Virus record (IMG/VR): IMGVR_UViG_3300042878_001080
Span: 1 to 64,000 of that record
Length of the DNA: 64,000 bases
Origin: a virus
Strand: one strand, 5' to 3'
This document shows positions 3 through 31,496 of the stretch, one piece after another (position 1 is the stretch's first letter; each line of letters opens with the position of its first letter). The translations under genes were made by a program, and so were the position numbers. Under the pieces are notes generated by a model. That model did no database searches. It was not told the DNA's origin and saw only the letters and a program-made list of their open reading frames with translations.

Positions 3-182
3 AGTGGAACAATATCAGATAGTGCTTGGAGACCAACTCAACAATTTGTCGGAATTGGTAGTATATACGCTACTGACACAGCAAAAGGAAAAGGGAGTAT
101 CTTACAAATATACAACAGAGCACTATCATCATCAGAAGTATTACAAAATTATAACGCAGCAAAAGGAAGATTTGGATTATGA
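3..182 (+). CDS. 3' end of a LamG/concanavalin A-like domain protein (partial, not in ORF track)
   Basis: Frame +3 reads ...SILQIYNRALSSSEVLQNYNAAKGRFGL*, nearly identical to the C-terminus of the next ORF. The TGA overlaps the next ATG (ATGA). Confidence 0.85.
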   Translation, partial: SGTISDSAWRPTQQFVGIGSIYATDTAKGKGSILQIYNRALSSSEVLQNYNAAKGRFGL

Positions 183-1420
183 GTACAGTAGGAGGTGGAG
201 TAAATATTGTTAGAGATGGATTGGTTATGTATTTGGACGCTTCCAACACAAAATCGTTGGCAGATGTTCCAAGTCAGAATTTATTACCATGGAGTCAGGA
301 TTTCACTAATGTGAATTGGAATAAAATGAATATAACTGTAACTGCCAATACCACAACAGCACCCGATTTATCTAATACAGCAAACAGTGTTATACCAAAC
401 ACTGTTAATGGTGACCATTCCCTTAATGAAAATGGTGGAACTGTTAATTCTGCAAATACATATACCATATCTGTTTATGTTAAATCTAATGGGTATAATT
501 TTGTTAGATTAAGTTTTGAAGGTGCTGCAAGTAATGTTAATTATACTTTTTTTAATTTATCTAATGGGACTATAGGAAATACAAGTTCAATGTTATCAAA
601 CACAATAACCAACGTAGGAAATGGATGGTATCGTTGTAGTTCCACCCGAACAACAGATTTTTCAGGTCTTTTAAGAATGACAATATACGTCACAAGTGCA
701 AATAGTCAATTCTCCTATACTGGTGATGGTGTTTCAGGTCTTTATCTTTGGGGTACTCAATTAGAATTGGGTTCAGTTGCAACAACTTACATACCGACAA
801 CAACAGTTGCTGCATCAAGAGTACCAACATGGACAGACATATCAAAAGGGGGTAATAACGGAATATTAACAAGTGGATTTACATATAACTATTCAAATGG
901 GGGTAGTCTATTTTTTAATGGTGCGACTAGTTTTATCACAATATCAAATCCAATTAATCAATCAAATTTACTACAAGAATGGACAGTAATGGTATGGATT
1001 AATATAAGTGATAAAACTAGTCAAACATTACTAGGAGGGTTGAATCTGGGTTTATATGTTTGTTATTCTCAAGGTAATAATTCTCTACTGGCTTTAAATG
1101 ATTCATCTGGGGGGGATTATTATACATATGGCGGGGATTTAGGAGGAATAGGGTGGGTTTTAGTTAGCTTTATATTTAAAAATTTAACAGGTGAAAGATA
1201 TATTTATAGAAATGGTGTTAATATAACTACTAGTGGGCCAAATGTGTCCAGTAATCCTTTTGGTATATCATCAACATTGGTAATAGGTCAAATAAGTACT
1301 GGTAACTTAACTAGGGCATTTCAAGGATTACTGTCAAACATACAAATTTATAACAGAGCTTTATCACCATCAGAAGTATTACAAAATTATAATGCCGCAA
1401 AATCAAAATTCGGTTTATAA
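179..1420 (+). CDS. LamG-like jelly-roll virion protein with an inserted carbohydrate-binding/spike-like domain
   Basis: GLVMYLDAS...TWTDIS...NNG and C-terminal IYNRALSxxEVLQNYNA motifs typical of phage LamG proteins; about 190 aa insert NLLPWSQDF...GWYRC...WGTQLE...YIPTT. Confidence 0.75.
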   Translation: MSTVGGGVNIVRDGLVMYLDASNTKSLADVPSQNLLPWSQDFTNVNWNKMNITVTANTTTAPDLSNTANSVIPNTVNGDHSLNENGGTVNSANTYTISVYVKSNGYNFVRLSFEGAASNVNYTFFNLSNGTIGNTSSMLSNTITNVGNGWYRCSSTRTTDFSGLLRMTIYVTSANSQFSYTGDGVSGLYLWGTQLELGSVATTYIPTTTVAASRVPTWTDISKGGNNGILTSGFTYNYSNGGSLFFNGATSFITISNPINQSNLLQEWTVMVWINISDKTSQTLLGGLNLGLYVCYSQGNNSLLALNDSSGGDYYTYGGDLGGIGWVLVSFIFKNLTGERYIYRNGVNITTSGPNVSSNPFGISSTLVIGQISTGNLTRAFQGLLSNIQIYNRALSPSEVLQNYNAAKSKFGL

Positions 1421-1478: not shown

Positions 1479-3293
1479 ATGGCATCAGAATTTAACATAA
1501 AAAATGGATTTATATCAAATAATAACTCCATCGTACAGGGTACTTTAACAGCAACAACATTATACACAACAACATCATCCGTTTACGGTAACTTATTATT
1601 AGGTACAACAACAGATAACGGTGTTTCAAAATTACAAATTAAAGGAACAACAGCATCAGATGGTCCAACATTAGGAACGGAACTTGCAACAACTGCGACA
1701 GGTACAAACTGGGTTGGAACATCATTTGCTTTAGGATATGACCACACAACAGGTAGTACAGTTGCATTGACATCTACATTAGCAGCAGTTAATGGAACTT
1801 ATTATCAAATTGCTTATACTATAACTGGTAGAACTACTGGTTCAATCTCTATAAATTATGGTGGTTCGAATAACACAAGTATAACTTCAACAGGTACTCT
1901 TGGACCATTAGCAACTACAACAGGTGTTTTAACTATAACACCAACAACTGATTTTGATGGTACATTAGTTTTAAGTGTTAAAGCACAAACAACAACAAGT
2001 GTTGCAACAACCACATTTACTAATAGTTCAGGTACAATTGTAAATGAGATTAGAAACTCAAGTAGTAATACCAATTTATTTATTGGACAAGATAGTGGTA
2101 GAAGAGTTACAACAGGATTAGGGAATATATTTTTAGGTAATGGGTCTGGTAAAAATAATACAACTGGAACTCAAAATACTTTTATAGGATTTAATTCTGG
2201 CCAGGTAAACTCTCTAGGTTTATTTAATACATTTATAGGTTATCAAACAGGTTTATTTAATACAACAGGTGGTTATAATACTTTTATAGGACAGAATGCT
2301 GGATATACTAATACAATAGGTGGTAGTAATGTATTCTTAGGACAAAGTGCTGGTTATCAAAATATTGGTGGTGGTAGTAACGTATTCTTAGGTCTTCAAG
2401 CTGGTTATAATAATACAAGTGGTGGTTCAAATATAAATATAGGTTTAAATGCTGGTTTTGCTAATCAAACAGGTAGTGAGAATGTTTTTATAGGTTATAC
2501 AGCTGGTCGATTTATTTCTAATGGTATTACAACAGCAACAGTTGTAAATAAATCAATATTAATTGGTGCCAATACAAAACCACTTGCTGATACTCAAACT
2601 AATCAAATTGTAATTGGTGATTCTACTGTAGGTCTTGGTTCAAATACTATAGTGTTAGGAAATACCTCTACAGTTACAACAGCAATTTATGGTAATCTAT
2701 TACTAGGAACAACAAGTGATGGTGGAGGTAAATTACAAATATCAGGTTCTATAAATCCAACATCAACAGTTGCTAGAGGTGCATCTATCTCTCCAACATT
2801 AGTTGCTACAGCAAATAACGATACACTTATTGGATTGGATATTAATCCAACTTTTACAAACGGAGTATTTACTGGATTAACTAATATAGCAATTAGAACA
2901 GGGGGACATATATTTCCAAGAAGCGGAAATTCTTCAGATTTAGGAGGGAGTAGTGTACCCTTTAGGGATATTATTAGTGCTGGTAATGTTTTTGCAAATT
3001 ATTTCCAAGGATATACAGGAGGATTTTATTTTGCAACGGGTTACGTGAATAAAGTCAGAGTTGTATCCAATGGAAATTTTATCATACAAGACGGTGGTAC
3101 TTTTACAGACGTATCAAGTGCAAGACTTCAAATAAATAGCACCACACAAGGTGTATTACTACCAAGAATGACGACAGCCCAAATAAACGCAATTGTTTCC
3201 CCAGTACAAGGTTTAACGGTTTTCAATACAGATTTAAACACACTTTGTTTTTATACAACATCGTGGCAAAAAGTAACTAATACAGCAATGTAA
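1479..3293 (+). CDS. Tail fibre/adhesin-like protein with 14-aa beta-roll repeats
   Basis: Tandem NxFIGxxAGxxNxxG repeats, G/T/N-rich, C-terminal STTQGVLLPRMTT...GLTVFNTD fibre module. Confidence 0.7.
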   Translation: MASEFNIKNGFISNNNSIVQGTLTATTLYTTTSSVYGNLLLGTTTDNGVSKLQIKGTTASDGPTLGTELATTATGTNWVGTSFALGYDHTTGSTVALTSTLAAVNGTYYQIAYTITGRTTGSISINYGGSNNTSITSTGTLGPLATTTGVLTITPTTDFDGTLVLSVKAQTTTSVATTTFTNSSGTIVNEIRNSSSNTNLFIGQDSGRRVTTGLGNIFLGNGSGKNNTTGTQNTFIGFNSGQVNSLGLFNTFIGYQTGLFNTTGGYNTFIGQNAGYTNTIGGSNVFLGQSAGYQNIGGGSNVFLGLQAGYNNTSGGSNINIGLNAGFANQTGSENVFIGYTAGRFISNGITTATVVNKSILIGANTKPLADTQTNQIVIGDSTVGLGSNTIVLGNTSTVTTAIYGNLLLGTTSDGGGKLQISGSINPTSTVARGASISPTLVATANNDTLIGLDINPTFTNGVFTGLTNIAIRTGGHIFPRSGNSSDLGGSSVPFRDIISAGNVFANYFQGYTGGFYFATGYVNKVRVVSNGNFIIQDGGTFTDVSSARLQINSTTQGVLLPRMTTAQINAIVSPVQGLTVFNTDLNTLCFYTTSWQKVTNTAM

Positions 3294-3680: not shown

Positions 3681-4844
3681 ATGCAAGTAGTTGAAGTTAG
3701 TAGTTTAACCGGACATTCCCCGTACAGTATAACAATATGTGATATAACCAAGACATATTGTTATGTTGTTGCAACAGGTGTTGTATCTATACCAATAACG
3801 GTTGATATACCAACAGAATTATTGGGAACGGAAGAATTATTGGTTGTAATAACGGATTCTGCTGGTTGTGAAATGTTTCAACCATATTACTGTATTACAC
3901 CGACACCAACACCGACATTAACACCAACTCCGACAATAACCCCAACAAATATCTCATGTAATTGTATAACATTTACAAATATTGGGGTAACAACCCAAGG
4001 ATTTAGTTATATTGATTGTGAGAATCTAAGTATTGATTTTAAAATAAATTCGGGAACCACATTATATGTTTGTGGTAAATCACCGATGGTATCGGGTGAT
4101 GTAATATATTCGATGGGATTACCTTGTGTTGACAACACTTGTATATTACCAACTCCAACACCAACACCAACACAATTTAGAAACTTTAGGGTGACCAATT
4201 ACGACACTGATGGTTCCATGTTAACAGGTATAACAACAAGTTTTATTTCAACGTTTAATATTGTGTATCCATTATCTAGTGGTCACACAGGAAACGGATA
4301 TCTGTCAACAAATTCTATTGGTGATTATATGTCCTTTTCAATTACGGGTGGTTCAAACTACGCAATTAATGTTTATGTTAATAGTATATTATCGAGTGGT
4401 TATACAGGAATACCCCCATATACGGAAGTTTATTATTTAACACAAAGTATTGGTGGTAGTGATTTGTTATCTGTCGATATAATTGACCCTCTTAACCCTC
4501 CAACACAAACTCCAACACAAACTCCAACAAAAACTCCGACAAATACACCAACACCAAGTGTAACTCCGACATTAACACCAACAATAACACCGACCAATAC
4601 AGTCACACCTACGGTAACTCGAACACAAACCCCAACAGTAACCCCAACATTAACCCCGACTAATACCGTAACCCCAACACCTAGTGTAACCCCAACATTA
4701 ACCCCGACTAATACTGTTACACCAACTAAAACTGTGACCCCAACTATCACACCAACCCCAACTAGAACACCAATATATTATTTAGAACAAGCCAACGGAT
4801 TTTATGTTTTACAAGCGGATGGTTCAAAACTTATTATAACATAA
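3681..4844 (+). CDS. Thr-Pro repeat (mucin-like), Cys-containing putative virion protein
   Basis: Three TP tracts, the last about 90 aa, separating small Cys-containing modules. Confidence 0.7.
4498..4772 (+). repeat. Degenerate coding repeat encoding a (T-P-T-x)n tract
   Basis: Recurring acacca/accccaaca units; translation [24 protein letters not shown]... Confidence 0.9.
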
Positions 4845-4864
4845 ACTATTTATAAATAAAAAAT

Positions 4865-5503
4865 ATGCCAGATTTACCAATATCATCACTACCCGAATTA
4901 ACCGCCATGACTTCAAATGCGGAATTCGTTGTTGAACAGTCAGGTACAACATACAAAGTTAAGAAAACAGTGTTATCACCATTAACAACTGCTTATGGTC
5001 TGTATTCCCAAACAGGTGATAGTGCTACGGTATCAGCAACCACTGTTGAAACGAGTATAATAGGTCCGGGTGTTGGAACATTAACAGTCCCAGCAAATGG
5101 GTTTAGTGTTGGTGATTCGTTTCAAGTATCATTCGATGGTATTTTGTCTTGTATTAACACCGCAACAATCAACATTCACGTTAGAACAACTGGTGGGGCA
5201 TTACTCATTGATACAGGAGTAATAGATTTGGACACCTCAACCTCAAGGCCTTGGTTATTAACACTATATTTCACGATAAGAAAAATCGGAGGAACCACAG
5301 TTGCTTCAATATCATCCGGCGGACTATTCTCCTACCTTAAAGATGCTAGTATTACCTATGAAGGATATCCGTTAAGTGAGATTAATAATACGACATTTGA
5401 CACCACAATAATCAACACATTATCAGTGAATGTCCAATGGAATACCGCTAATGTGGGAAATCAAATATTTTCAAGAAATTTTACATTAACTAAAATATTT
5501 TAA
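4865..5503 (+). CDS. Putative virion structural protein
   Basis: N-terminal MPDLPISSLPEL type start seen in fibre/decoration proteins; beta-rich S/T/G composition; TATTTATA box upstream. Confidence 0.55.
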   Translation: MPDLPISSLPELTAMTSNAEFVVEQSGTTYKVKKTVLSPLTTAYGLYSQTGDSATVSATTVETSIIGPGVGTLTVPANGFSVGDSFQVSFDGILSCINTATINIHVRTTGGALLIDTGVIDLDTSTSRPWLLTLYFTIRKIGGTTVASISSGGLFSYLKDASITYEGYPLSEINNTTFDTTIINTLSVNVQWNTANVGNQIFSRNFTLTKIF

Positions 5504-5580
5504 GGAGAACGATAACACTAATTAAATAAAATTATTTATCTTTTATTTTAAGTTATTATTATTAATTTAAAATAAAAAAG

Positions 5581-6831
5581 ATGAATAAGATTTTTATACA
5601 AATTGCCGCTTATCGCGACCCCCAACTTAACATAACAATTAAGGATTGTATTAAGAACGCTAAATACCCTAAGAATTTGGTATTTGGCATTTGTAATCAA
5701 CACCACCCTGATGATGAATTTAATATTGACGAATATCAAAAGGACAAAAGATTTAAAATTGAGAATGTTTTATATTCCGATTCTAAAGGAGCTTGTTGGG
5801 CAAGAAATTTACTACAACAAAGATATAGTGGTGAAACCTACACACTACAAATAGATTCCCATATGAGGTTTGCTCCGAATTGGGATGTCGAATTAATTAA
5901 AATGATTAAACAACTCCAAAAGAAAGGATTTAAGAAACCTTTATTAACGGGATATGTTTCTTCGTTCGACCCGGATAATGACCCGGAAGGAAGAGTCCAA
6001 GAACCTTGGAGGATGGCTTTTGATAGATTTATTCCGGAAGGAGCCGTGTTTTTCCTACCTGAAACAATCCCCGGTTGGCAAACATTAACAGAACCAGTTC
6101 CGGCAAGATTCTATTCAGCACATTTTTGTTTCACATTAGGACAATTTAGTGAAGAAGTTCAACACGATAATGAATTCTACTTTCATGGTGAGGAAATATC
6201 TGTAGGTGTTAGAGCTTACACTCACGGATACGACCTATTCCATCCACACAAAACATTAATTTGGCACGAATACACGAGAAAAGATAGAGTTAAATCTTGG
6301 GATGATGACAAAGAGTGGGGTAAGAAAAATGAATCCGCACATTCAAAAAATAGAAAACTATTCTCGATGGATGGTGAAGTTTATAATCCCGAAGAATTTG
6401 GTAAATACGGATTTGGTACCGAAAGAACCCTTAAAGATTATGAAATATATTCAGGTCTTAAGTTTTCAAATAGAGCCGTTCAACAATACACATTAGATAA
6501 ACATTATCCCCCAAACCCCCAAGTTTTTGAAACTGAAGAAGAGTGGTTGGCAAGTTATGCGAGTATCTTCAAACATTGTATCGATATTGGATTTTCTCAA
6601 GTTCCGGAAAAGGATTACGACTTTTGGGTTGTTGCTTTCCACGATGAAAACGATGAAACTCTCTTTAGAAAAGATGCCGATATCAACGAAATTAACAATA
6701 TGTTAAGAGACCCTGATGGGTATTGTAAAGTTTGGAGAGAATTTCAAACCGTTCATAAACCAAAATACTGGGTTGTTTGGCCGTTTAGTAAGTCAAAAGG
6801 TTGGTGTGATAGAATAACGGGAAATTTATAA
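5581..6831 (+). CDS. GT60-like polypeptide alpha-GlcNAc transferase (Skp1/Gnt1-type GlcNAc family)
   Basis: IFIQIAAYRDPQL, SKGACWAR, LQIDSHMRF (DxH metal motif) and FHGEEI signatures of the family. Confidence 0.85.
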   Translation: MNKIFIQIAAYRDPQLNITIKDCIKNAKYPKNLVFGICNQHHPDDEFNIDEYQKDKRFKIENVLYSDSKGACWARNLLQQRYSGETYTLQIDSHMRFAPNWDVELIKMIKQLQKKGFKKPLLTGYVSSFDPDNDPEGRVQEPWRMAFDRFIPEGAVFFLPETIPGWQTLTEPVPARFYSAHFCFTLGQFSEEVQHDNEFYFHGEEISVGVRAYTHGYDLFHPHKTLIWHEYTRKDRVKSWDDDKEWGKKNESAHSKNRKLFSMDGEVYNPEEFGKYGFGTERTLKDYEIYSGLKFSNRAVQQYTLDKHYPPNPQVFETEEEWLASYASIFKHCIDIGFSQVPEKDYDFWVVAFHDENDETLFRKDADINEINNMLRDPDGYCKVWREFQTVHKPKYWVVWPFSKSKGWCDRITGNL

Positions 6832-8472
6832 ATGTTTAAAATTAATGATGTTAGAAAAGTTGTAATAAACCTTAAACGAAGACCTGATAGATTAGAACAA
6901 TTCAATCAAGAAATGAACTATATGGGTTGGGATTACGAGGTGTTTGAAGCAATTGATGGTGGTGGATATGTCGGATGTGCTTTATCTCATCAAAAAATTA
7001 TTGAGGATTTTTTAAAAACCGATGATGAATATATTATGGTTTTTGAGGATGATTCTTTTTTTATGCCTTATACTAAAAATCAATTAGAAAAATCTTTAAA
7101 CGAATTATCTAATCTTGATTGGGATTTTTTTCATTTAGGTCCAAGTATAAATTGCCCTGTAAATAATTTTTCAGATAATTTATTAAATTTATCTAAATTA
7201 CCAGAACAAGAACCTCACCATAGAGGGATTTATAACACCGTTTGTTACATTACTAATAAAAAGTTTGCCAAAAAAATACTTGAGTGGAAAGTTAATAACC
7301 AAAAAGCTATCGACCAATTTTTTTATGAGGACATATACAATCAATTAAATTGTTACGCACCTTCAATACCGTTAGTCACACAAAAAAATGGTTTTTCAGA
7401 CATTAATAATACAAACGATAATAATCATTATCTTATCACATATAATTGGAATTTATATACCCAAAACAAAATTAGTGCCTTTTATTACGACATTAATCAA
7501 TGTGAAAAAGAAAAAAAAATAATAGAAAAACCAATTACCGTTATTAGTGAGATTATAGAGTCAAAATTACAATTATTAGAAGTTAAGACCGAACATAAGG
7601 TTAAATTTATTACAGCCATTTACGCTAATCTATATGGTACCGAATTAGGTGGAAGACCTAATCGTCACGGACATTATAGATGGAGTTTATTATCCATATT
7701 AAAAATGACTAACGCTGATTTCATTTGTTACACCTCAGATGAGGAATTTGATGATTTAGTTAAGTTTTTTTATATAGAGAATAACATTAGTAACGAAAAA
7801 TTACAGATAGTTAAATTTAATCTGTTTAATAATGAGTTTTCTGAAATTATTAACAAATATAAAGATGTTGAGGGAATTAAACGAGGTGATAGATGTATCG
7901 AAATTCAATATATGAAATTCTTATGGTTTTTAACTGAAGATAAAACATATGATTATTATTTTTGGATTGATGCAGGATTATCCCATTGTGGATTAATACC
8001 AAATAAATACCTCTCTTTAACAGGCCCACATAACCAAGGTTATTATGAAAGTCCTTTATTTAATAATGTGTTTTTAAATAATTTAATTAAAAATACCGGA
8101 GATAAATTTACCCTTATTGGAAAAGAAAACGAGCGAAATTTTTGGTCGGGAACCGTAAATCCAATACATTTTATCGAATACAATCGAAGTATTCATATTA
8201 TTGGAGGTATGTTCGGTGGTAGAAAAGAATTGTGGGAAAGAATTGTTCAATTATTTAAAGGATATGTTTATAAAGTTACCGAATACGATAACCGATTATA
8301 TCACGAAGAAGATATTATGACATTAATGTTTAGAAATCACCCGGAATTATTTCACGATTATTATTTTGAAACTTGGTGGCACGAGGATGAAAGAATGGCC
8401 GGAACAGATATGGCGGAACACGTTAAAAACAATAAAAGCTTTTATAAAATATTAGAAGAATTAAATGAATAA
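6832..8472 (+). CDS. Two-domain glycosyltransferase: GT25-like + HtrL/WlaTC-like
   Basis: N-half VINLKRRPDR, GCALSH, FEDD; C-half FWIDAG, IGGMFGG, HEEDIM. Confidence 0.75.
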   Translation: MFKINDVRKVVINLKRRPDRLEQFNQEMNYMGWDYEVFEAIDGGGYVGCALSHQKIIEDFLKTDDEYIMVFEDDSFFMPYTKNQLEKSLNELSNLDWDFFHLGPSINCPVNNFSDNLLNLSKLPEQEPHHRGIYNTVCYITNKKFAKKILEWKVNNQKAIDQFFYEDIYNQLNCYAPSIPLVTQKNGFSDINNTNDNNHYLITYNWNLYTQNKISAFYYDINQCEKEKKIIEKPITVISEIIESKLQLLEVKTEHKVKFITAIYANLYGTELGGRPNRHGHYRWSLLSILKMTNADFICYTSDEEFDDLVKFFYIENNISNEKLQIVKFNLFNNEFSEIINKYKDVEGIKRGDRCIEIQYMKFLWFLTEDKTYDYYFWIDAGLSHCGLIPNKYLSLTGPHNQGYYESPLFNNVFLNNLIKNTGDKFTLIGKENERNFWSGTVNPIHFIEYNRSIHIIGGMFGGRKELWERIVQLFKGYVYKVTEYDNRLYHEEDIMTLMFRNHPELFHDYYFETWWHEDERMAGTDMAEHVKNNKSFYKILEELNE

Positions 8473-10141
8473 GGTAACATTAGTAACAGGATTATGGGAC
8501 ATAGGTAGAGGCGACCTACAAGAGGGTTGGTCTCGTTCATTTCAACATTATTTAGATAAATTCCAACAACTATTACAAGTTGATGTGAATATGATAATCT
8601 TTGGAGATGAAGAACTAGAAAAATTTGTATCTCAACATAGAAATAACGAAAACACACAATTTGTTCGTAGAAATTTATCTTGGTTTAAAAACAACGATTT
8701 TTACGATAAAATACAATCAATTAGAACAAACCCCGATTGGTTTAACCAAGTTGGGTGGTTATCAGAATCTACACAAGCTAAATTAGAAATGTATAATCCT
8801 TTGGTAATGTCCAAGGTGTATCTTTTACACGATGCAAAGATTTTAGATAAATTTGATTCAGAATATATGTTTTGGATTGACGCTGGTTTAACAAATACGA
8901 TTCACCCGGGTTATTTTAGCCACGACAAAGTTTTAGATAAATTACCAAAGTTAGTTAAGAACTTCCATTTTGTTTGTTTTCCTTACGAAACAAATAGTGA
9001 GATTCACGGATTCAAATACCAAGAATTAAGTGAATTAGCGGGAAAACCTGTTAATATGGTTGCTCGAGCAGGTTTCTTTGGTGGAAAAAAAGATGTTATA
9101 TCAGAAATTAATAGTATCTACTATGGTTTAATGAACGATACATTATCTCAAGGATTAATGGGTACCGAAGAGTCATTATTTACAATTATGACGTATAAGT
9201 ATCCAAATTTAATTACTTACTCTGAAATAGAGGATAATGGGTTAATGGGTAAATTTTTTGAGGATTTAAAGAACACAACCGTTGAGGTTAAATCGGAAGT
9301 ATCTAAAGATGTTGTTGTTAATAATTTGGACACATCAAAAGTTGGTCTTTATGTAATCACATTTAACTCACCTAAACAATTTGAAACATTAATTAAAAGT
9401 ATGTTAGAATATGATTCAGATTTTATTACCAAAACTAAAAAATTCTTATTAGATAACTCAACGGATTTATCAACTACTCCGAGATATATTGAGTTATGTG
9501 AGGAGTATAATTTTGAGCACATTAAGAAAGTTAATTTAGGTATTTGTGGAGGAAGACAATTTGTTTCAGACCATTTTAATGATTCTGATTTAGAAGTTGG
9601 AATTTGGTCGGAAGACGATATGTTTTTTCAAAATAAACCGGATGAAACTTGTAGAAACGGATTTAATCGTTATACACCAAACTTATACCAAAAATGTTTA
9701 GAGATATTACAAAAAGAAAACTTCGATGTATTAAAGTTAAACTTTAGTGAATTTTTTGGTGATAATAGTGTGCAGTGGAGTTGGTATAATACACCACAAG
9801 ATTTTAGACAAAAAAATTGGCCAAATAAACCAAAACTACCGGTTCAAGGGTTGGACCCTAATGCTCCTTTAACAGAATTTAAAAATATTAAATCACATAA
9901 AGGATTACCTTACGCAACAGGTGAAATTTATTACTGTAATTGGACTCATTTTTTTACAAAAGAAGGTAATCGTAAAATGTTTCAAGAAACAAAATGGGAC
10001 AGGCCTTTTGAGAATACGTGGATGTCACACATTTATCAAGAAACAATAAAAGGAAAAATCAATTCTGCTTTATTACTGTTAACACCAATAGAACACAATC
10101 GATTCGAACACTATTCCGCGGAATTAAGAAAAGAATCTTAG
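8465..10141 (+). CDS. Two-domain glycosyltransferase: HtrL/WlaTC-like + GT-A (GT2-like)
   Basis: TLVTGLWDIGR, FWIDAG, GFFGG, GTEES; C-half YVITFNS, LDNS, NLGICGGR, EDDM. Confidence 0.7.
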   Translation: MNKVTLVTGLWDIGRGDLQEGWSRSFQHYLDKFQQLLQVDVNMIIFGDEELEKFVSQHRNNENTQFVRRNLSWFKNNDFYDKIQSIRTNPDWFNQVGWLSESTQAKLEMYNPLVMSKVYLLHDAKILDKFDSEYMFWIDAGLTNTIHPGYFSHDKVLDKLPKLVKNFHFVCFPYETNSEIHGFKYQELSELAGKPVNMVARAGFFGGKKDVISEINSIYYGLMNDTLSQGLMGTEESLFTIMTYKYPNLITYSEIEDNGLMGKFFEDLKNTTVEVKSEVSKDVVVNNLDTSKVGLYVITFNSPKQFETLIKSMLEYDSDFITKTKKFLLDNSTDLSTTPRYIELCEEYNFEHIKKVNLGICGGRQFVSDHFNDSDLEVGIWSEDDMFFQNKPDETCRNGFNRYTPNLYQKCLEILQKENFDVLKLNFSEFFGDNSVQWSWYNTPQDFRQKNWPNKPKLPVQGLDPNAPLTEFKNIKSHKGLPYATGEIYYCNWTHFFTKEGNRKMFQETKWDRPFENTWMSHIYQETIKGKINSALLLLTPIEHNRFEHYSAELRKES

Positions 10142-10752
10142 TTTAATATTTTATTACTTTTTCTCAAATTATCTTCAGCCCATAGAGGCTGAAGATTTGT
10201 GTAATGATAAAGTTTATAAACATCTTTTTCTGTCTTAGCTGAAGACACTGGTATTATATGGTCTAAATGCCACCCATAGTACCCATAATTGTCCCAAGAC
10301 ATACCTTCAGTAAATTTATTCTCAATATATCCCATTAAAAATTCATAATCACACCCAACTAAATTAAGTGTTTTAGGATTATTGTATTGTTTATTAAGTA
10401 ATTGATTTATTCTTGACCTTAAAGAATTTTTAATTTTATTTTTTGGGTCTGAATTATACTCATTTATATATTTTTTCCTATGTTCTTTATTTTTATCTAC
10501 CCATTTTTTAAAATATTCCGGATTATTTTTTTTATATATCCGACATTTTTCTTTGTTAATTTCAGGGTTTTCTATCCTGAATTGTTTTCCCTTTTCAGAA
10601 ATTATTTTTGCATTTTTTTTATTATAATCAAATGAAGATTCATTCATACACTTTTTACATTGACCTCTATAAATGTTTGGATTTTTACTGTGTTTATAAA
10701 ACTCACAAACCTCTTTTTTTTCTTTACACTTACTACATATCTTTTTTTCCAT
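10138..10752 (-). CDS. HNH homing-type endonuclease with N-terminal Zn finger (copy 1)
   Basis: CSKC...CKKC, WHLDHIIP...HYTNLQPLWAEDNLRKS. Confidence 0.85.
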   Translation of the reverse strand: MEKKICSKCKEKKEVCEFYKHSKNPNIYRGQCKKCMNESSFDYNKKNAKIISEKGKQFRIENPEINKEKCRIYKKNNPEYFKKWVDKNKEHRKKYINEYNSDPKNKIKNSLRSRINQLLNKQYNNPKTLNLVGCDYEFLMGYIENKFTEGMSWDNYGYYGWHLDHIIPVSSAKTEKDVYKLYHYTNLQPLWAEDNLRKSNKILN

Positions 10753-10888
10753 AATACTCTTTTAATAATTTATTAAGTAATGTTGATTTTTTAATTTTTT
10801 CTTTAACCATTCGGTCAAATAAATCACGGTCTAAACTTATTCCAAATTTTACCTTTCTATCTTCTTCTAATTTTGTTGGTCTTGCCAT
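10733..10888 (-). CDS. Small ribbon-helix-helix-like protein (51 aa, not in ORF track), partner of HNH copy 1
   Basis: MARPTKLEEDRKVKFGISLDRDLFDRMVKEKIKKSTLLNKLLKEYYGKKDM*; homologous ORFs precede the other two HNH genes. Confidence 0.8.
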   Translation of the reverse strand: MARPTKLEEDRKVKFGISLDRDLFDRMVKEKIKKSTLLNKLLKEYYGKKDM

Positions 10889-10983
10889 ATTATATAAATA
10901 TCTTGTTTTTTATTAAAGTTTCACTACAACTAATAATAAATAATTATTTTTATTTTATCAAGTATTTATAATAAAAACTTTAT

Positions 10984-13908
10984 ATGGAGTGGTTCATTAA
11001 AAAAAATTCTACTTTACCAGTTTTAAAGTTATCCATAATTAAAGATGGGAGAAGTGATTACAATAATTTTATGGAATTATTGGAAACTTCCACCATATTC
11101 TTTTCTATGGTTAATTCTGAGACGGGTATCCCCAAGATAACTTCGAGACCTGCTGGGTTTGTTGAAAAAACATTTGACGACCCCAATGCGGAACCGGAGT
11201 ATTACATTTACTATCAATTTACCAAACAAGACACGAGTATTGAGGGTAGATATGAGGGCCAGTTTTTGGTTAAGACATTTGATGGGAATATTATATTACC
11301 TATCAGGGAAAAACTATACATATACGTCCAAGAATCATTCATTGCTGATGATTTAGAGTATAATACTTGTTATACATCAACGTTCCCTTGTTGTGGTAAT
11401 CCAAATATTGTTGATAACCCAAATGAGAATACGATAAACATTGTTCCCCAGTATTATCCGGGGTCGATAGGTGCGTTATATACGGCAACATCAAGATATC
11501 CGGTGGATACGGATGTTACTGTTACATTTAAAAATGTTTTAGGTGTAACAACAGGTGACCCGGTTATTATTAACACTTCAGTGACAATTTATACCGGTAG
11601 TAAAGAAGGTATTACGGAACTAATTATTGAGGACGATTTTGATAGATTAAATTTATACACATTATTCTCTGATGTGGTATTAACCACCAATAGTGATTCT
11701 CAATACGATAATGTTACTATAATAGATAGACCAATAGTTATCGAACCAATACCACCAAGACCAAGACCAAAATATGTTACCGCAACTGTTATAAGTTGTT
11801 GTGATGGTAAAGAAGGTTGTATGTCTGATATCCCAACAAATTTAAACATTGTTGTAGGTAATAGTGTCTTAGGTGATGATGGATTATGTTATGTTATTCA
11901 ACAATTTAATACTATAGAGTGTGAAACAACAGTTTCTTTTAATCAATCATATTATAAAGATTGTAAATATTGTACGTCAAAATATCCGTGTAATGTTATA
12001 AATACAACACCTACACCAACACCTACGGTTACACCAACACATACTCCAACACCAAGTCCAACAAAAAATTGTGTGGGACCTACATTAAGTACGGTTTTAA
12101 ATAGTAGTGGGAACACATTTTTAGTTTATTTTAATATAACTAACCCTTGTAGTACAATTTTAGTTAATTGGTCATCAGATAACATTAATTGGAATAGTAC
12201 CTCAGGTGGTTGTTCGTCACCAAGAAGTATTACTATTCCAAATCCGTTACCCCCAACAATATATTTTAATGTAACTCAAAATAGTAGTGAATGTCCTTCA
12301 TTTACATCAAATACGGTATCATATTATGTAATACCATTAACAAGAACCCCAACACCGACCCCAACAACTAGTTTGGGTGTTACTCCGAGTGCAACACCAA
12401 CTATAACACCGACAAACACTGTAACCCCAACACATACACCAACAAGTAGTCATACACCAACACCGACAACAACGAGAACACCGACACCAACAAAAAGAGT
12501 TAAGAATTTGGCTTATAATGTGTTATCTTGTTGTAGTAGAATTTCAGGTATTATAATATTACCATTAACATTTACTGTTGGCACAACAATTTTAACGACA
12601 AGTAATTTATGTATGTCTATTACAGGATATGCCCCAAAAGGTAGTATTCCAACATATACGTGGTCGGGTATGGAATATGGCCAAGGTTGTAACGAATGTT
12701 TAAATCGTTATCCTTGTAATCCTATCCCAACTCCGACACCAACCCCTACAAGATGTAATGGTTGTTTAAGTTATGTGTTAGATGGTGGTTTAGGAAGTAG
12801 TGGTCACACAGATTTTAGTTATATTCCTTGTGGAGGACAAACATCGGTAACGGTTTCGATAGATAGAACTAATATGTTACCAACAAATAAGGTAACAGTT
12901 TGTGGTGAGTGTTATTATGGTGTTTTAATTTTGTCAGGGACTGGTAGTTATTCAATATCGGGGAATTGTCCAACAATCACTCCAACACCAACAACCACAC
13001 CGACAACAACACCAGCAACCAATTTATGTTTAATAATCACCCCAAAATGTGGTACATATTTTCCAACTGAAGGTAATGGGTTAATAAATGGTAAGAAATT
13101 TTGGAACATAACTATTGATAACAACCCAACCTTAATTTATTGGGATAATGTTAATATTTGTTGGGTTGTTAAGAATACGTCAACAAATGAAGAATGTTCT
13201 AAATTATATATAGATTCTCAATACCCTATTGGTGATTACACTCAATGGGTATCACCTTCACAAACATCAATGGGTTGTGAATGTTTAACTACGGATAATT
13301 ACTTTAGTATATCGGCCATTAACTGTTTTACACCAACACCAACACCAACTAATACCGTTACACCAACACGCACTCCAACCCACACTCCAACACCAACAGT
13401 AACATCGTCACCATTATTACCAATTGTTGGTTATTTTCAAGATTGTTGTAATGAAAATATAAAATTTAAAGCGGGTTTATTACCTTTTGGGTTAATTTTG
13501 GGTGAATCCTATTATGTACAAACCACGGGATACACAGGTTGTACCACTTTTATACCCGAAACACCGGTTTCAGTTCAATACCCAAGTATTATTGTTATAG
13601 ATGAGGGTGAAAATTGTCAAGTTTGTAATCTTAAAATGTCTATTGTATGTGCAACACCTACACCAACACCAACACCAACAAATACCATCACACCAACAAA
13701 TACCGTTACACCAACACACACACCAACACCAACTATGACTCCAACTAACACACCAATTGGTTGTATTGATTGTGGTGTTTCAGGATACACATATATAATA
13801 TCCGAACCAATTATCTATCCATCACCAAGACCAACAAGCACACCGACAAGAACACCAACACAAACCCCGGATAACACAATATACACAATATGGGTTAATA
13901 TTGAATAA
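10984..13908 (+). CDS. Large mucin-like virion protein: BppU-like N-terminal domain, then Cys-rich modules separated by Thr-Pro tracts
   Basis: FIKKNSTLPVL...YQFTKQDT...GRYEGQF N-terminus; about seven TP tracts; repeated SCC/DCC...CxxC modules. Confidence 0.7.
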   Translation: MEWFIKKNSTLPVLKLSIIKDGRSDYNNFMELLETSTIFFSMVNSETGIPKITSRPAGFVEKTFDDPNAEPEYYIYYQFTKQDTSIEGRYEGQFLVKTFDGNIILPIREKLYIYVQESFIADDLEYNTCYTSTFPCCGNPNIVDNPNENTINIVPQYYPGSIGALYTATSRYPVDTDVTVTFKNVLGVTTGDPVIINTSVTIYTGSKEGITELIIEDDFDRLNLYTLFSDVVLTTNSDSQYDNVTIIDRPIVIEPIPPRPRPKYVTATVISCCDGKEGCMSDIPTNLNIVVGNSVLGDDGLCYVIQQFNTIECETTVSFNQSYYKDCKYCTSKYPCNVINTTPTPTPTVTPTHTPTPSPTKNCVGPTLSTVLNSSGNTFLVYFNITNPCSTILVNWSSDNINWNSTSGGCSSPRSITIPNPLPPTIYFNVTQNSSECPSFTSNTVSYYVIPLTRTPTPTPTTSLGVTPSATPTITPTNTVTPTHTPTSSHTPTPTTTRTPTPTKRVKNLAYNVLSCCSRISGIIILPLTFTVGTTILTTSNLCMSITGYAPKGSIPTYTWSGMEYGQGCNECLNRYPCNPIPTPTPTPTRCNGCLSYVLDGGLGSSGHTDFSYIPCGGQTSVTVSIDRTNMLPTNKVTVCGECYYGVLILSGTGSYSISGNCPTITPTPTTTPTTTPATNLCLIITPKCGTYFPTEGNGLINGKKFWNITIDNNPTLIYWDNVNICWVVKNTSTNEECSKLYIDSQYPIGDYTQWVSPSQTSMGCECLTTDNYFSISAINCFTPTPTPTNTVTPTRTPTHTPTPTVTSSPLLPIVGYFQDCCNENIKFKAGLLPFGLILGESYYVQTTGYTGCTTFIPETPVSVQYPSIIVIDEGENCQVCNLKMSIVCATPTPTPTPTNTITPTNTVTPTHTPTPTMTPTNTPIGCIDCGVSGYTYIISEPIIYPSPRPTSTPTRTPTQTPDNTIYTIWVNIE

Positions 13909-17418: not shown

Positions 17419-17446
17419 ACCTCCCCCAAAAAGGGAGGTTTTTTTT
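17419..17446 (+). terminator. Rho-independent terminator
   Basis: ACCTCCC-loop-GGGAGGT followed by a T run. Confidence 0.85.
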
Positions 17447-17452
17447 ACCCAT

Positions 17453-17485
17453 TTGACTTAATCAATTATTTCCGATATATTTATA
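17453..17485 (+). promoter_or_regulatory. Promoter upstream of the DNA polymerase
   Basis: TTGACT-17 nt-TATATT, overlapping a TATTTATA box at 17478-17485. Confidence 0.6.
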
Positions 17486-20383: not shown

Positions 20384-20539
20384 ATGGGACGACCTAAAAA
20401 AGAAGAGAAAGATAAAAAGATTAAAATTGGTATAACAATTGACCGAGAACTTTATAATCAAATTAAAAAAGATAAAATAATGCCTTCCCGAATTATAGAA
20501 AAACTAGTTAAAGAATATTATGAAAACAAAAATTTGTAG
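20384..20539 (+). CDS. Small ribbon-helix-helix-like protein (51 aa, not in ORF track), partner of HNH copy 2
   Basis: MGRPKKEEKDKKIKIGITIDRELYNQIKKDKIMPSRIIEKLVKEYYENKNL*; overlaps the HNH start by 20 nt. Confidence 0.8.
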   Translation: MGRPKKEEKDKKIKIGITIDRELYNQIKKDKIMPSRIIEKLVKEYYENKNL

Positions 20540-21173
20540 TAAGTGTAAAGAAGAAAAAGATATTAATATGTTTTATACCGGCAGACCCGAATGTAAAAGT
20601 TGTAAATTACTTAGAGATAAATCTTATTATGATTTAAATAAAGAAATAATACTAAATAAAAATAAATTATATTGGGAAAATAATAAAGAAACAATAACAA
20701 ATAGACATAAAGAATATTGGGAAAATAATAAAGAAAAATGTAAAGACCTTCAAAAAACTTATAGGTTAAATAATGTCGAGAAAGAATCTAATAGACGTAA
20801 ATTATGGTTAAAATCTAACAAATGTCGAATTAATGATTATAGAAAAAAACAAAGGTTAGAACATCCGACTTATAGATTATCGGAAAATATTAGACGAAGA
20901 TTAAATACTTTTTTAAAATCAAATAATGTTACTAAAAAAAACAAAACATTTGATATTGTTGGTTGTTCTCCGGAATTCCTTAAAGAGTATTTAGAACAAA
21001 AATTTACAGAAGGAATGTCTTGGAAGTTAATGGGACAACACATTCATATCGACCACATAATCCCTTTATCATCGGCAAACACCGAAGAAGAACTATATAA
21101 ACTTTGTCATTATACAAACCTTCAACCATTATGGGCTTTTGATAATTTAAGTAAGGGAAGTAAAATATTATAA
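20520..21173 (+). CDS. HNH homing-type endonuclease with N-terminal Zn finger (copy 2)
   Basis: CSKC...CKSC, IHIDHIIP...HYTNLQPLWAFDNLSKG. Confidence 0.85.
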   Translation: MKTKICSKCKEEKDINMFYTGRPECKSCKLLRDKSYYDLNKEIILNKNKLYWENNKETITNRHKEYWENNKEKCKDLQKTYRLNNVEKESNRRKLWLKSNKCRINDYRKKQRLEHPTYRLSENIRRRLNTFLKSNNVTKKNKTFDIVGCSPEFLKEYLEQKFTEGMSWKLMGQHIHIDHIIPLSSANTEEELYKLCHYTNLQPLWAFDNLSKGSKIL

Positions 21174-27902: not shown

Positions 27903-30900
27903 ATGGCAACAAACAGCAAAGTATTCGTATCTCCCGGGGTATATACTTCCGAAGTTGATTTAAGTTTCGTAGCACAAAGTGTGGGTGTAACCACATTAGG
28001 TATCGTTGGTGAGACACAAAAAGGTCCCGCTTTTGAACCAATCTTTATACGTAACTTCGATGAATTCTCAACTTTTTTTGGGGGAACATCCCCTGAGAAG
28101 TTTATCAATACACAAATACCGAAGTATGAAGCATCATATATCGCAAAGGCTTACTTACAACAATCTAATCAATTGTTTGTTACGAGAATTTTGGGGTTAT
28201 CAGGATATGATGCAGGACCATCTTGGTCTTTTAAAACAATCGCTAATGTTGATAAATCAACAGTAGGGTTTAAGTGTTCTGGAACAACATATGATGTAAC
28301 ATTATGTGCGGATGTATGTACGGGTTATACTATAACACCATTTACATTTACTTTCACAGGATGTAACAGTAATATAAATACGATTGGATTATCGGGGGTA
28401 ACTAGTTATATATCAAGTAATTTAAATGATACTTACGAAACATTTAATGGAAGTACCTCAACAATATCTGATAATATTAAAACACAATTATTTAATATTA
28501 TTAGTATTCCAAGTACTTCAGCAACATCAATTAACTACTACGGGACAATTTCAGGTTCTGATTATAACACATTAAGTACTACATACACAAGTGAAACTAA
28601 TGTTTATGGTGTTGATAGTGTAAGTTCAACAAATGCGGACTATACTGATGCAAATAATGACCCTTGGTATTACTCTTTATTTGATAATACTAATGGTTCA
28701 TATAGTGGTTTTTCATTTTATAATGTTGTTAGTGATTTAACTCAAACTTCAACATCTTCAAACTGTGCAACATTCTATTCATTATCAGTTAGTTCTGCAA
28801 CGGTATCAAATACTGTAGGTAGTATAAACTATAATACTAATACTATTGATGTTGTGTTACCATCAGGAACACCAACATCTGGTTTAACGGCATTAACAGT
28901 TATGTTTAGTGCTTGTACAACAAATGTTAAGGTTAGTGGTGTTACACAACAAAGTTCAGGTAGTACTCAAAACTTTTCAGCGGGAACTAAACAATATGTT
29001 TTAGTGTCCCAAGATAGTGGAACAACGAATAATTGGACCGTTAATGTTACGGTTGATAATCCTTGTAATCCAGCGACAACAGGTCATACAGGTTCTCATA
29101 ATACCGGAACAATAACTACTTGTTATAGTGGTACGGTTAGTGGTAAAATTTATGTTTATTCAGGTGTCTCTTATACTGATTTTGACGATATGGTTATTGC
29201 AACACTTCGTTCAAGAGGTATTGCAACATATAGTACTGATAGTAATGGTCCTGCTTATGAAGTTACAGGATTAACAGATGTTACTATTGATTGTGTTACT
29301 TCAACATATTCAAACATTGCTAAAAACCCATTTGCGGAATTTGGTCTTAATGTTATAGATAAAGATGGTAATAGTTTCTTCTTTGAAACATCATTTAGTG
29401 AATCGGATTCTAAATACTTACCAAAAGTGTTTGGTTCTTCTAATTTCTCTAAACCAAGAACAACAGTACCATTATTTGTTGAGGAAAAATTTCAAACATT
29501 ATTGAACTACGGTTATAATAAAGGATATATTAAAGGTTTAAGTTGTGACTTACTATCATTACCTAGAGCTAATTCAAATGTTAATTCCTCGTCATCTATA
29601 GCATATTACTTAGAAAAATATCAAACACCGGTTTCACCGTGGATTGTTTCTGAAGTTAGAGGTAGTAAAGTATATAACTTATTTAGATTTACAACCATTT
29701 CTGACGGTAATGGTGCAAATACGGAAGTTAAAATATCAATATCTAATATGTCTTTTAATAATTTAACATTTGACGTGTTAGTTAGAGATTTTTATGATAC
29801 CGATAATAATCCGGTAGTAATTGAGAAATTTACTAATTGTACTATGGATTCTAATAGTAATTCATTTGTGGGACAAAAAATTGGAACAACAGATGGTGAA
29901 TACGCATTAAATTCAAAATACATAATGGTAGAAATGAATGAAGATGCACCTATTGATACATTACCTTGTGGTTTTCAAGGATTTAAATTTAGACAATATG
30001 GTTCATCAAATTCCCCATTTCCAATTTATAAAACTAAATACGATTATCCGGGAGAAGTGGTTTTTGACCCACCATTTGGATTAAGTTCAGGAAGTAACAA
30101 CTCAACTTTAAGTCCGGGTGATAATGTTCGTAAAACATATTTAGGTATTTCTACAGGAAATGGTGCTGGTTTTGACGTTGATTTCTTCCAATATAAAGGA
30201 AAACAAAGACCTTTAAATTTATGTATTGATAGTGATGCTGCTGAATGGATAACATTAACTAAAGGTTATCATATGGATAAAAACGCAAGTGGTATAACAA
30301 TTTCTAATAGTTATACAACTAGTGGAACTTCAGCATATTATGTTGGTGACGCTACATTCACAACAGACCCTTCAGACGAAACAAGTCCTTATTACAGAAT
30401 ATATTCTCGTAAGTTCTCAGTATTAGTTCAAGGAGGTTTTGATGGTTGGGATATCTATAGAGAATCAAGAACAAATACCGACACATTTAAGTTAGGTAGA
30501 AGAGGTTACTTAAACGGTGCTTGTCAGGACATTAAATATCCTACAGCAACAGGTTGGGGAGCATTTAAACAAATTAAAGTTGGAAATAATACTGTTGATT
30601 GGGGTAACTCTGATTACTACGCTTATTTATTAGGACAACAAACATTCTCAAATCCTGAAGCAGTTAATATTAATTTATTTGTTACACCAGGTATTGATTA
30701 TACTAATAATTCTGATTTAGTTGGGGATGCAATTGAAATGATTGAGTTCAATAGAGCTGATTCATTATACATTTGTACGACTGCTGATAGTAATTTATTT
30801 TTACCAACACCTGATACCGCTGGTTTAATTTACCCTCAAGAAGCTGTTAATGTTTTGGACGATAGTGGTGTAGATTCTAATTATACAGCAACTTATTATC

Positions 30901-31496
30901 CTTGGGTATTAACTAGAGATAGTGTTAATAATACACAAATCTATTTACCACCAACGGCAGAAGTTGTAAGAAACTTGGCATTAACCGATAACATTGCGTT
31001 CCCTTGGTTCGCGGCAGCAGGTTATACAAGAGGTATTGTAAATGCTATCAAAGCGAGAAAGAAACTTACTCAAGAAGATAGAGATGTCCTTTATCAAGGT
31101 CGTATCAACCCAATCGCCACTTTTTCTGATGTTGGTACCGTAATTTGGGGTAATAAAACTCTTCAAGTAGCACAATCCGCTCTTGATAGAATAAATGTGA
31201 GAAGATTATTACTTCAAGCTCGTAAATTGATTTCAGCAGTATCTGTAAGATTATTGTTTGAACAAAACGACCAAAAAGTAAGACAAGATTTCTTAGATGC
31301 TGTTAATCCTATCTTGGACGCTATCAGAAGAGATAGAGGTTTATATGATTTCCGAGTTACAGTATCTTCAGACACTGCTGATTTAGATAGAAATCAAATG
31401 ACTGGTAAGATTTATATCAAACCAACCAAATCATTAGAATTTATAGACATTACGTTCTATATTACTCCAACCGGAGCTTCTTTTGAAAATATATAA
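27903..31496 (+). CDS. Contractile tail sheath protein with large S/T-rich insertions
   Basis: VSPGVYTSEVD N-terminus; PWFAAAGYTRG, INPI, WGNKTLQ, RINVRRLL, IKPTKSLEFI C-terminal sheath motifs. Confidence 0.95.
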   Translation: MATNSKVFVSPGVYTSEVDLSFVAQSVGVTTLGIVGETQKGPAFEPIFIRNFDEFSTFFGGTSPEKFINTQIPKYEASYIAKAYLQQSNQLFVTRILGLSGYDAGPSWSFKTIANVDKSTVGFKCSGTTYDVTLCADVCTGYTITPFTFTFTGCNSNINTIGLSGVTSYISSNLNDTYETFNGSTSTISDNIKTQLFNIISIPSTSATSINYYGTISGSDYNTLSTTYTSETNVYGVDSVSSTNADYTDANNDPWYYSLFDNTNGSYSGFSFYNVVSDLTQTSTSSNCATFYSLSVSSATVSNTVGSINYNTNTIDVVLPSGTPTSGLTALTVMFSACTTNVKVSGVTQQSSGSTQNFSAGTKQYVLVSQDSGTTNNWTVNVTVDNPCNPATTGHTGSHNTGTITTCYSGTVSGKIYVYSGVSYTDFDDMVIATLRSRGIATYSTDSNGPAYEVTGLTDVTIDCVTSTYSNIAKNPFAEFGLNVIDKDGNSFFFETSFSESDSKYLPKVFGSSNFSKPRTTVPLFVEEKFQTLLNYGYNKGYIKGLSCDLLSLPRANSNVNSSSSIAYYLEKYQTPVSPWIVSEVRGSKVYNLFRFTTISDGNGANTEVKISISNMSFNNLTFDVLVRDFYDTDNNPVVIEKFTNCTMDSNSNSFVGQKIGTTDGEYALNSKYIMVEMNEDAPIDTLPCGFQGFKFRQYGSSNSPFPIYKTKYDYPGEVVFDPPFGLSSGSNNSTLSPGDNVRKTYLGISTGNGAGFDVDFFQYKGKQRPLNLCIDSDAAEWITLTKGYHMDKNASGITISNSYTTSGTSAYYVGDATFTTDPSDETSPYYRIYSRKFSVLVQGGFDGWDIYRESRTNTDTFKLGRRGYLNGACQDIKYPTATGWGAFKQIKVGNNTVDWGNSDYYAYLLGQQTFSNPEAVNINLFVTPGIDYTNNSDLVGDAIEMIEFNRADSLYICTTADSNLFLPTPDTAGLIYPQEAVNVLDDSGVDSNYTATYYPWVLTRDSVNNTQIYLPPTAEVVRNLALTDNIAFPWFAAAGYTRGIVNAIKARKKLTQEDRDVLYQGRINPIATFSDVGTVIWGNKTLQVAQSALDRINVRRLLLQARKLISAVSVRLLFEQNDQKVRQDFLDAVNPILDAIRRDRGLYDFRVTVSSDTADLDRNQMTGKIYIKPTKSLEFIDITFYITPTGASFENI

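Follow-up and report, generated by a model that had tools for sequence, protein, structure and literature searches.

Introduction

The characterized glycosyltransferases (GTs) of family GT60 transfer alpha-linked N-acetylglucosamine (GlcNAc) onto Thr of Thr-rich mucins, and the peptides that they accept are Thr-rich and flanked by Pro (PMC3769586). A DxH motif in place of the DxD metal-binding motif is a hallmark of this family and of GT27 (PMC7185993). Among phages, mycobacteriophages encode transferases that glycosylate their own virion proteins in the host cytoplasm, as cited in two reports (PMC12619734, PMC12582341). In purified virions of the Xanthomonas jumbo phage XacN1, Schiff staining reveals glycoproteins in at least two bands (PMC5852040, Supplementary Fig. 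S4), and the authors of that study suggested that the phage's own GTs make them. In the present study, we analyze a 64-kb stretch of DNA from an uncultured phage (hereafter the window), which is the first part of the 93-kb IMG/VR record IMGVR_UViG_3300042878_001080 (completeness ~32%, guanine-cytosine (GC) content ~31%) and carries three adjoining GT genes, one of them of family GT60, between genes for proteins with long Thr-Pro (TP) tracts. The best reading of this island, given a probability of roughly 60%, is that the phage O-glycosylates its own virion proteins.

Virion glycosylation by phages is as such already known from the mycobacteriophages, and for XacN1 the idea was put forward by those who described that phage. 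What is new here is the GT60 initiator, the hypothesis, with comparative support, that TP tracts are the acceptors, the layout of fixed anchors around a variable cassette, and the abundance of the lineage. A literature search on GT60 together with phage found nothing relevant.

Results and Discussion

Domains Encoded by the Island

The second of the three genes abuts the first, and the third overlaps the second by 8 nt (Table 1). The first protein matches PF11397 (GT60) in Pfam with 226 bits against a cut-off of 21, a match that is also recovered in a genome-level search, and the phage glycosyltransferase family phrog_24687 covers it end to end. Its D92-S93-H94 triplet does not vary among 17 sequences that represent three clades, over which the W-H-E-Y motif of the GT60 protein is invariant or nearly so. 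The protein is predicted to be an initiating polypeptide N-acetylhexosamine (HexNAc) transferase.

The second protein matches PF01755 (GT25) over residues 45-163 (59.7 bits, cut-off 24, E 4.7e-16), and this domain is weakly similar in sequence to COLGALT1 chains (E about 1e-3). The C-terminal part of the protein resembles the HtrL domain of the third protein, both by BLASTP (E 2e-4) and in the profile-profile alignment by hhalign (99%, E 7.6e-18). The two halves are fused in the window and in locus L005, and are encoded by two adjacent genes in L046, L052-L054, L058, L068, and L078; because the halves stand as separate neighboring genes in these relatives, the window gene is taken to be a fusion.

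In the third protein, the N-terminal part matches PF09612 HtrL_YibB (70.9 bits, cut-off 24.1, E 1.7e-19). Its C-terminal half has no match to GT2 or to any other family in Pfam, also when isolated halves are run, and none among PDB sequences. The AlphaFold model of the protein (18 homologues, predicted local distance difference test score 80) consists of two GT-A domains, and its Foldseek matches, with E about 1e-9, are to the tandem-GT-A enzymes LH3, Mimivirus R699, LARGE1, K4CP (chondroitin polymerase), COLGALT1, and heparosan synthase. In the second GT-A domain, N-S-x-D (331-334) and E-D-D (383-385) are invariant. The three genes together encode five GT-A-type domains. Phmmer and profile searches of the GT60 and dual-GT-A proteins against PDB sequences gave no matches, and the family placement therefore rests on Pfam and on the predicted fold. 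None of the three proteins has a membrane segment, the maximum Kyte-Doolittle hydropathy over 19 residues being at most 0.79, where a hydrophobic 19-mer at or above 1.6 is counted as transmembrane (TM)-like.

Thr-Pro-Tract Proteins

The TP tracts of the two proteins that flank the island amount to 134 residues (57 Thr) on the upstream side and 203 residues (84 Thr) on the downstream side, so that Pro/Thr/Ser-rich candidate acceptor domains stand alongside the predicted initiating enzyme, as in a mucin-type system. The composition of the upstream protein is 22% Thr and 11% Pro and that of the downstream protein 17% Thr and 10% Pro, compared with 8.8% Thr and 4.5% Pro in the proteome of the contig. 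Homologues of the upstream protein lie directly upstream of GT60 in many relatives. TP tracts are found in 30 of the 53 distinct genes immediately upstream of GT60, as against 1.3-3.6% of open reading frames (ORFs) genome-wide (two near-complete relatives, depending on the definition), where the 53 neighbors differ widely in length and sequence and come from related loci, the 30 thus not being independent events. The most mucin-like protein seen in the clade is encoded directly upstream of GT60 in another locus (L050:258-5588; 1776 residues, with 59 TP tracts and 746 tract residues).

The N-terminal domain of the downstream protein folds as an Ig-like sandwich, whose weak best matches include the phage baseplate parts NF5, TP901-1 BppU, T5, and DT57C. 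The domain is kept in relatives, in some as a stand-alone protein of 121-143 residues, and is followed by variable C-terminal extensions of 0 to ~840 residues that are often TP-rich. Judged from these models, it would fit an anchor that bears a variable appendage. The modules between the tracts are Cys-rich (recurring CC...C...C..C; 4.3% Cys vs 1.4% in the proteome), which is unusual for a protein made in the bacterial cytoplasm, and similar small Cys modules lie between the TP tracts of XacN1 ORF325.

These results agree for the most part with the original prediction. Its coordinates for the abutting or overlapping GT genes (5581-10141) and for the two flanking genes (3681-4844 and 10984-13908) coincide exactly with ORFs, and the claims that the GTs lack TM helices and that long TP tracts lie on both sides are borne out. 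Among the five GT domains that it named, the GT60, the GT25, and the two HtrL-like domains are recovered by Pfam or hhalign, and the model of the third protein shows the dual GT-A fold, but the label GT2 for the last domain has to give way to a GT-A fold only. The placement in a fibre gene cluster is correct insofar as the genes farther upstream match tail-fibre and tailspike PHROGs and the N-terminus of the downstream TP protein is weakly baseplate-like, but not for the upstream TP protein, which has no structural match.

Island Architecture in Relatives

The GT60 protein has 106 relatives in IMG/VR with 60-91% identity, on contigs of up to 322 kb. The architecture was read from the best 80 of these 106 contigs, in which the GT60 and dual-GT-A genes are fixed anchors. 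The conserved order runs from a TP-tract fibre-like gene through GT60, a variable cassette, the dual-GT-A gene, and a small gene (equivalent to residues 1-140 of the downstream TP protein, with or without an extension) to polB. The cassette between the anchors has 36 compositions in 55 loci, drawn from more than 60 gene clusters, and seven compositions are found when only loci with a polB at least 93% identical to that of the window are counted. Representative cassette genes encode GT2, GT25, GT34-like, and GT10 (fucosyltransferase-like) enzymes, FkbM- and CmcI-type methyltransferases, an epimerase, and a HAD-phosphatase/nucleotidyltransferase fusion. A TM-like segment is found in none of the 238 cassette proteins. 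As judged from these genes, the island is a soluble oligosaccharide-building kit in which the first and the last enzyme are fixed.

When the loci are anchored on polB instead, the dual-GT-A gene is present in 27 of the 35 that extend at least 9 kb upstream. Polymerase-anchored loci without a GT60 match mostly have the dual-GT-A gene at the locus edge, so that GT60 would fall outside the flank; in loci L183 and L211, no island gene is found within about 9.5 kb upstream of polB. The polB anchoring, intended to supply close relatives without GT60 as negative controls, gave no usable set of this kind. The GT60 protein is matched, at E up to 1e-5, by 7,199 protein clusters of a large protein collection; this search gave only close metagenomic relatives and no named cellular ones, and the GT60-bearing lineage is, by this measure, abundant.

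XacN1, a Third Phage Clade, and Bacteria

The GT60 protein of XacN1 (ORF334) is 47% identical to that of the window, and ORF330 is the orthologue of the dual-GT-A protein (42% identity over the full length, E 1e-159); ORF332 is HtrL-like, and a carbamoyltransferase is also present. Both the baseplate wedge and a 3313-residue baseplate-adjacent protein, the C-terminal TP tracts of which flank small Cys-containing modules, are encoded within a few genes of this island. Among 18 further XacN1-like contigs, the GT60/dual-GT-A pair is kept in the 16 that belong to the XacN1-like clade (plus one window-clade contig), except in one contig that ends before the pair, and TP-tract genes lie nearby in several of them. 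In a third phage clade, the GT60 protein is 37-40% identical and a TP-tract gene stands immediately upstream. Phages that differ greatly in host and in GC content thus share the initiator and the last enzyme, in keeping with an acceptor that is borne by the phage itself.

Full-length GT60 homologues with 38-68% identity are also found in bacterial genomes of many phyla. Their immediate neighbors contain Ser/Thr/Pro tracts in 11.8% of cases, compared with 3.0% of the other ORFs of these loci (odds ratio 4.4; p 1.7e-5 by Fisher's test; crude ORF calls, and statistics that ignore phylogeny). The dual-GT-A partner is kept in about 28 of 65 bacterial loci. The co-occurrence of GT60 with TP-tract genes is accordingly seen in three phage clades and in bacteria.

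Proposed Mechanism

We infer that the three genes are an island with which a lytic jumbo myovirus O-glycosylates proteins in the cytoplasm, with the acceptor, donor, linkage, timing, and function proposed to be as follows. Late in infection, the soluble GT60-type enzyme would put the first HexNAc, most likely alpha-GlcNAc from uridine diphosphate (UDP)-GlcNAc, on Thr (or Ser) of TP tracts in fibre-like or decoration proteins of the phage, namely the two flanking proteins and probably other virion proteins with such tracts. The GT25-like, HtrL-like, and second GT-A domains would lengthen this sugar into an oligosaccharide. The cassette would set the type of glycan, and, since relatives have different transferases, sugar O-methyltransferases, and nucleotide-sugar enzymes in the central part of the island, the glycans would differ between close relatives. 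The glycosylated proteins would be assembled into the particle, where the glycans may stiffen linkers, make them protease-proof, and alter the surface chemistry, with possible effects on adhesion and on the evasion of host decoys or lectins.

It should be mentioned here that a route through hydroxyproline was considered and dropped, because oxygenases of the prolyl-hydroxylase type were found in a single relative, where they lie far from the island. In that relative, two 2-oxoglutarate (2OG)-Fe(II) oxygenase genes of this type are located at G002:C1:288908-291681.

Weighing of the Alternatives

Several points weigh against the glycosylation of TP tracts on virion proteins. TP tracts are common interdomain linkers, and the GT25 and HtrL families are best known from lipopolysaccharide or lipooligosaccharide (LPS/LOS) loci. 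The immediate upstream neighbor of the window GT60 has no TP tracts, as is the case for 23 of the 53 upstream neighbors (43%), and the counts are not of independent events, the loci being related. The upstream TP protein matches no known structural protein. TP tracts are also present in 4-14 other proteins per genome, including large ones, far from the island, and for this reason the adjacency is suggestive and not proof; it may only reflect a place at the edge of the fibre module. In the XacN1 clade, moreover, replication genes adjoin the island on its GT60 side, and the XacN1 glycoprotein bands were neither assigned to proteins nor tied to its GT60 (PMC5852040). Part of these observations would also be expected if proteins were glycosylated at sites other than TP tracts or outside the virion, the target being the capsid, the sheath, or a nonstructural phage or host protein and the tracts being plain linkers; the mycobacteriophage glycans are, as summarized in one report, located on the C-termini of capsid and tail-tube subunits and not on fibres (PMC12619734). 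We consider this unlikely, since the neighbors of GT60 are enriched for Ser/Thr/Pro tracts in phages as well as in bacteria of many phyla and since known GT60 acceptors are Thr-rich, Pro-flanked mucin peptides. Another reading takes the TP neighbors to be unrelated fibre proteins and lets the island build or alter a glycan of the host envelope (LPS/LOS core, capsule, or a host glycoprotein), for example for superinfection block or for release. It would account for the annotation of GT25 (PF01755) and HtrL_YibB from LPS loci, for the resemblance of the hypervariable GT cassettes to O-antigen loci, and for the source annotation of homologues as 'glycosyltransferase involved in cell wall biosynthesis'. 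However, the 238 cassette proteins include no Gtr-type or lipid-carrier machinery, i.e., no flippase, bactoprenol-linked GT, polymerase, or undecaprenyl phosphate transferase, and no TM protein, and no GT of the window has a hydrophobic 19-mer. The initiator belongs to a polypeptide-transferase family and is conserved, together with the terminal enzyme, in phages whose hosts have very different envelopes and GC content, which again points to a phage-borne acceptor; in addition, serotype conversion is not to be expected of lytic jumbo myoviruses, which these phages seem to be. A role on the host envelope is thus improbable.

Phage GT-A enzymes can add diverse glycans to 5-hydroxymethylcytosine (5hmC) (bioRxiv 10.1101/2023.12.21.572611), and the island adjoins polB in relatives and the RNaseH, NUDIX, and polB genes in XacN1. 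The transferases could therefore be thought to glycosylate phage DNA, as a hypermodification of hydroxymethyl-pyrimidines that evades restriction, yet we regard this as very improbable, and as the least probable of the alternatives. In the window, a terminator and a promoter part the island from polB. Four near-complete relatives have no match to C5 DNA methyltransferases (PF00145) and none to Tet/JBP (PF12851), the latter in a search without a positive control. Their thymidylate-synthase homologue (PF00303) lies far from the island and is ThyA-like, with uracil-type F-N-I-A-S and P-C-H motifs, and it is absent from one 98%-complete relative (G002) that keeps the island. Finally, a restriction map of XacN1 DNA was made with the ordinary enzymes BssHII, NaeI, and SpeI, and the DNA could be sequenced in the normal way (PMC5852040).

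Virion-protein O-glycosylation remains in our view the best reading. The corresponding claim of the original prediction, that the phage O-glycosylates its own structural proteins, gains from the confirmed sequence features, from the co-occurrence, and from the Schiff-positive bands of XacN1, while the TP tracts as acceptors, GlcNAc as the first sugar, and a mucin-like coat with a shielding or adhesive role keep the standing of proposals. Its distinction from DNA glucosylation is strengthened to the extent that the hypermodification partners were not found in the four near-complete relatives and that XacN1 DNA can be cut, both of which weaken that rival.

Implications

If the proposal is true, mucin-type protein glycosylation is not exclusive to eukaryotes and is standard in a very common group of phages from the environment, and a purpose is found for the TP 'linkers' that are ubiquitous in phage fibres and in many bacterial proteins. 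The fast-changing cassette would then be a new axis of phage surface diversity, with a bearing on host recognition, particle stability, and the antigenicity of therapeutic phages. The same module is present in the cultured phages XacN1, Xoo-sp13, and Stenotrophomonas CM1/RAS14, which makes the idea directly testable. A bolder generalization, which we hold tentatively and at somewhat less than even odds, is that abundant, widespread jumbo phages, as well as many bacteria, O-glycosylate TP tracts in the cytoplasm in a mucin-type manner with GT60 as the initiator, and that rapid exchange of the phage cassette creates 'glyco-serotypes' on the fibres of near-identical phages, i.e., a second, sugar-based layer of variation in host range or defence evasion.

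Genomic Context and Other Observations

The window encodes structural proteins (a 1197-residue tail sheath, a baseplate wedge, and fibre- and spike-like proteins) as well as proteins of replication and metabolism (family-B DNA polymerase, DnaB, UvsX-like recombinase, single-stranded DNA-binding protein, and ribonucleotide reductase). From this gene content, it is a fragment of a jumbo myovirus of roughly 290 kb. A megablast search of the region against GenBank phages found nothing. The features of the block that contains the island are collected in Table 1.

Table 1. Features of the fibre/GT/TP block and of its boundary with the replication genes (positions in the window)
Position	Strand	Feature	Evidence
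179..1420	+	Fibre-like protein with C-terminal Laminin_G_3/ConA-like lectin domain; opens the same-strand block	phrog_5939 tail protein E 6e-29; phrog_8510 virion structural protein; PF13385 E 1.7e-14
1479..3293	+	Tailspike-like protein	phrog_4636 tail spike E 6e-11; virion structural PHROGs
3681..4844	+	387-residue modular protein with three TP tracts (70-91, 153-167, 270-366); candidate glycan acceptor	Translation
4865..5503	+	212-residue Thr/Ser-rich protein between the upstream TP protein and GT60	No Pfam or PHROG match; homologues in only a few relatives
5581..6831	+	GT60-family (PF11397) glycosyltransferase, soluble	PF11397 'GlcNAc' E 1.2e-66; phrog_24687 E 5e-162
6832..8472	+	GT25-like domain (about 1-220) fused to HtrL-like GT-A domain (about 255-546)	PF01755; hhalign
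8465..10141	+	Dual GT-A enzyme: HtrL_YibB 3-252 and second GT-A about 290-540	PF09612; AlphaFold2/Foldseek
10984..13908	+	974-residue 'beads-on-a-string' protein: Ig-like N-terminal domain 1-120, then Cys-rich modules between eight TP tracts; candidate glycan acceptor	
17419..17439	.	Strong bidirectional terminator-like hairpin; ends the same-strand fibre/GT/TP block	
17453-17481		Sigma-70-like promoter TTGACT-17-TATATT, 3' of the hairpin and ahead of polB	

The GT island shares one same-strand block with the fibre genes. The hairpin that ends this block is perfect and bidirectional, and together with the promoter it sets the block apart from polB, the two elements (17419-17481) marking the border of the structural/GT module with the replication genes. 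The timing of expression was also approached through a late-promoter-like motif, TATTTATA, which is located 18-25 nt before several structural genes and of which only a partial copy stands 48 nt before GT60; in this AT-rich DNA, the motif was discarded as uninformative on timing.

Genes for homing endonucleases of the HNH/endonuclease-VII-like type are found at 10138-10752 (-), 20520-21173 (+), and 50731-51291 (+). The one at 10138-10752 shares 4 nt with the dual-GT-A gene, at the stop of the latter, and looks like a mobile insertion, because only 7 of 55 relatives have it at this position, where it is encoded on the opposite strand. The tail sheath (27903-31496) matches sheath families only in its last ~300 residues and has a very large N-terminal or inserted region.

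Two further observations concern the relatives. In the 322-kb one, the thymidylate-synthase homologue is split into three pieces in two open frames (G001:C1:5332-7607), a layout that suggests an interruption by an intron, an intein, or a homing endonuclease. Contigs binned as Saprospiraceae (L218, CALJOK010000014.1, 230 kb; L224, L217, and L220; 33-34% GC) carry GT60 and dual-GT-A genes at 66-68% identity. The 230-kb contig and its like may be jumbo phage genomes binned with their host, which would hint at a host among the Bacteroidota (Saprospiraceae).

Comparison with Known Systems

One close counterpart is XacN1 (Yoshikawa et al. 2018, PMC5852040), in which the orthologous ORF334, ORF332, and ORF330 stand beside a baseplate-adjacent giant TP-tract protein. 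It differs in host and GC content and in the carbamoyltransferase of its cassette, and only two GTs were annotated in that paper, with neither a link to TP tracts nor an assignment to GT60 (PMC5852040). The GTs that act on phage DNA (T4 alpha/beta-GT; the GT-A/GT-B clusters for 5hmC glycans) are likewise soluble phage enzymes, sometimes several in a row and sometimes near replication genes, but partners that make hydroxymethyl-pyrimidines were not found in the relatives of the island, and the DNA of the orthologous phage is restriction-sensitive. In chloroviruses and Mimivirus (PBCV-1 capsid glycans; R699/L230-type enzymes), soluble multidomain GT-A enzymes and sugar methyltransferases of the virus decorate the virion with no secretory pathway, and R699 is itself a fold match of the dual-GT-A model; these are, however, eukaryotic viruses with N-linked or collagen-type acceptors and no GT60 initiator.

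Protist mucin GT60 enzymes are Golgi membrane proteins, while the cytoplasmic Skp1 enzyme Gnt1 is soluble. The phage protein resembles the protist family (Trypanosoma cruzi pp-alpha-GlcNAcT/TcOGNT-2, Dictyostelium Gnt2, and Gnt1) in its PF11397 match, which is well above the cut-off, and in the invariant DxH, and the island has an adjoining Thr/Pro-rich candidate acceptor and further transferases that possibly extend the first sugar. Unlike the protist enzymes, it is phage-encoded, for the bacterial cytoplasm, and has at its C-terminus an additional conserved domain of about 120 residues.

Mycobacteriophage virion glycosylation was reportedly described by Freeman et al. 2023. In the mycobacteriophage systems, transferases encoded by the phage act in the cytoplasm of the host on virion proteins of that phage, as is predicted for the island. 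The latter differs from them, as they are summarized in the reports cited above, in its predicted GT60-type initiator and in having internal TP tracts as the predicted acceptors in place of the C-termini of capsid and tail-tube subunits, and it differs further in its layout of conserved anchors that enclose a variable cassette.

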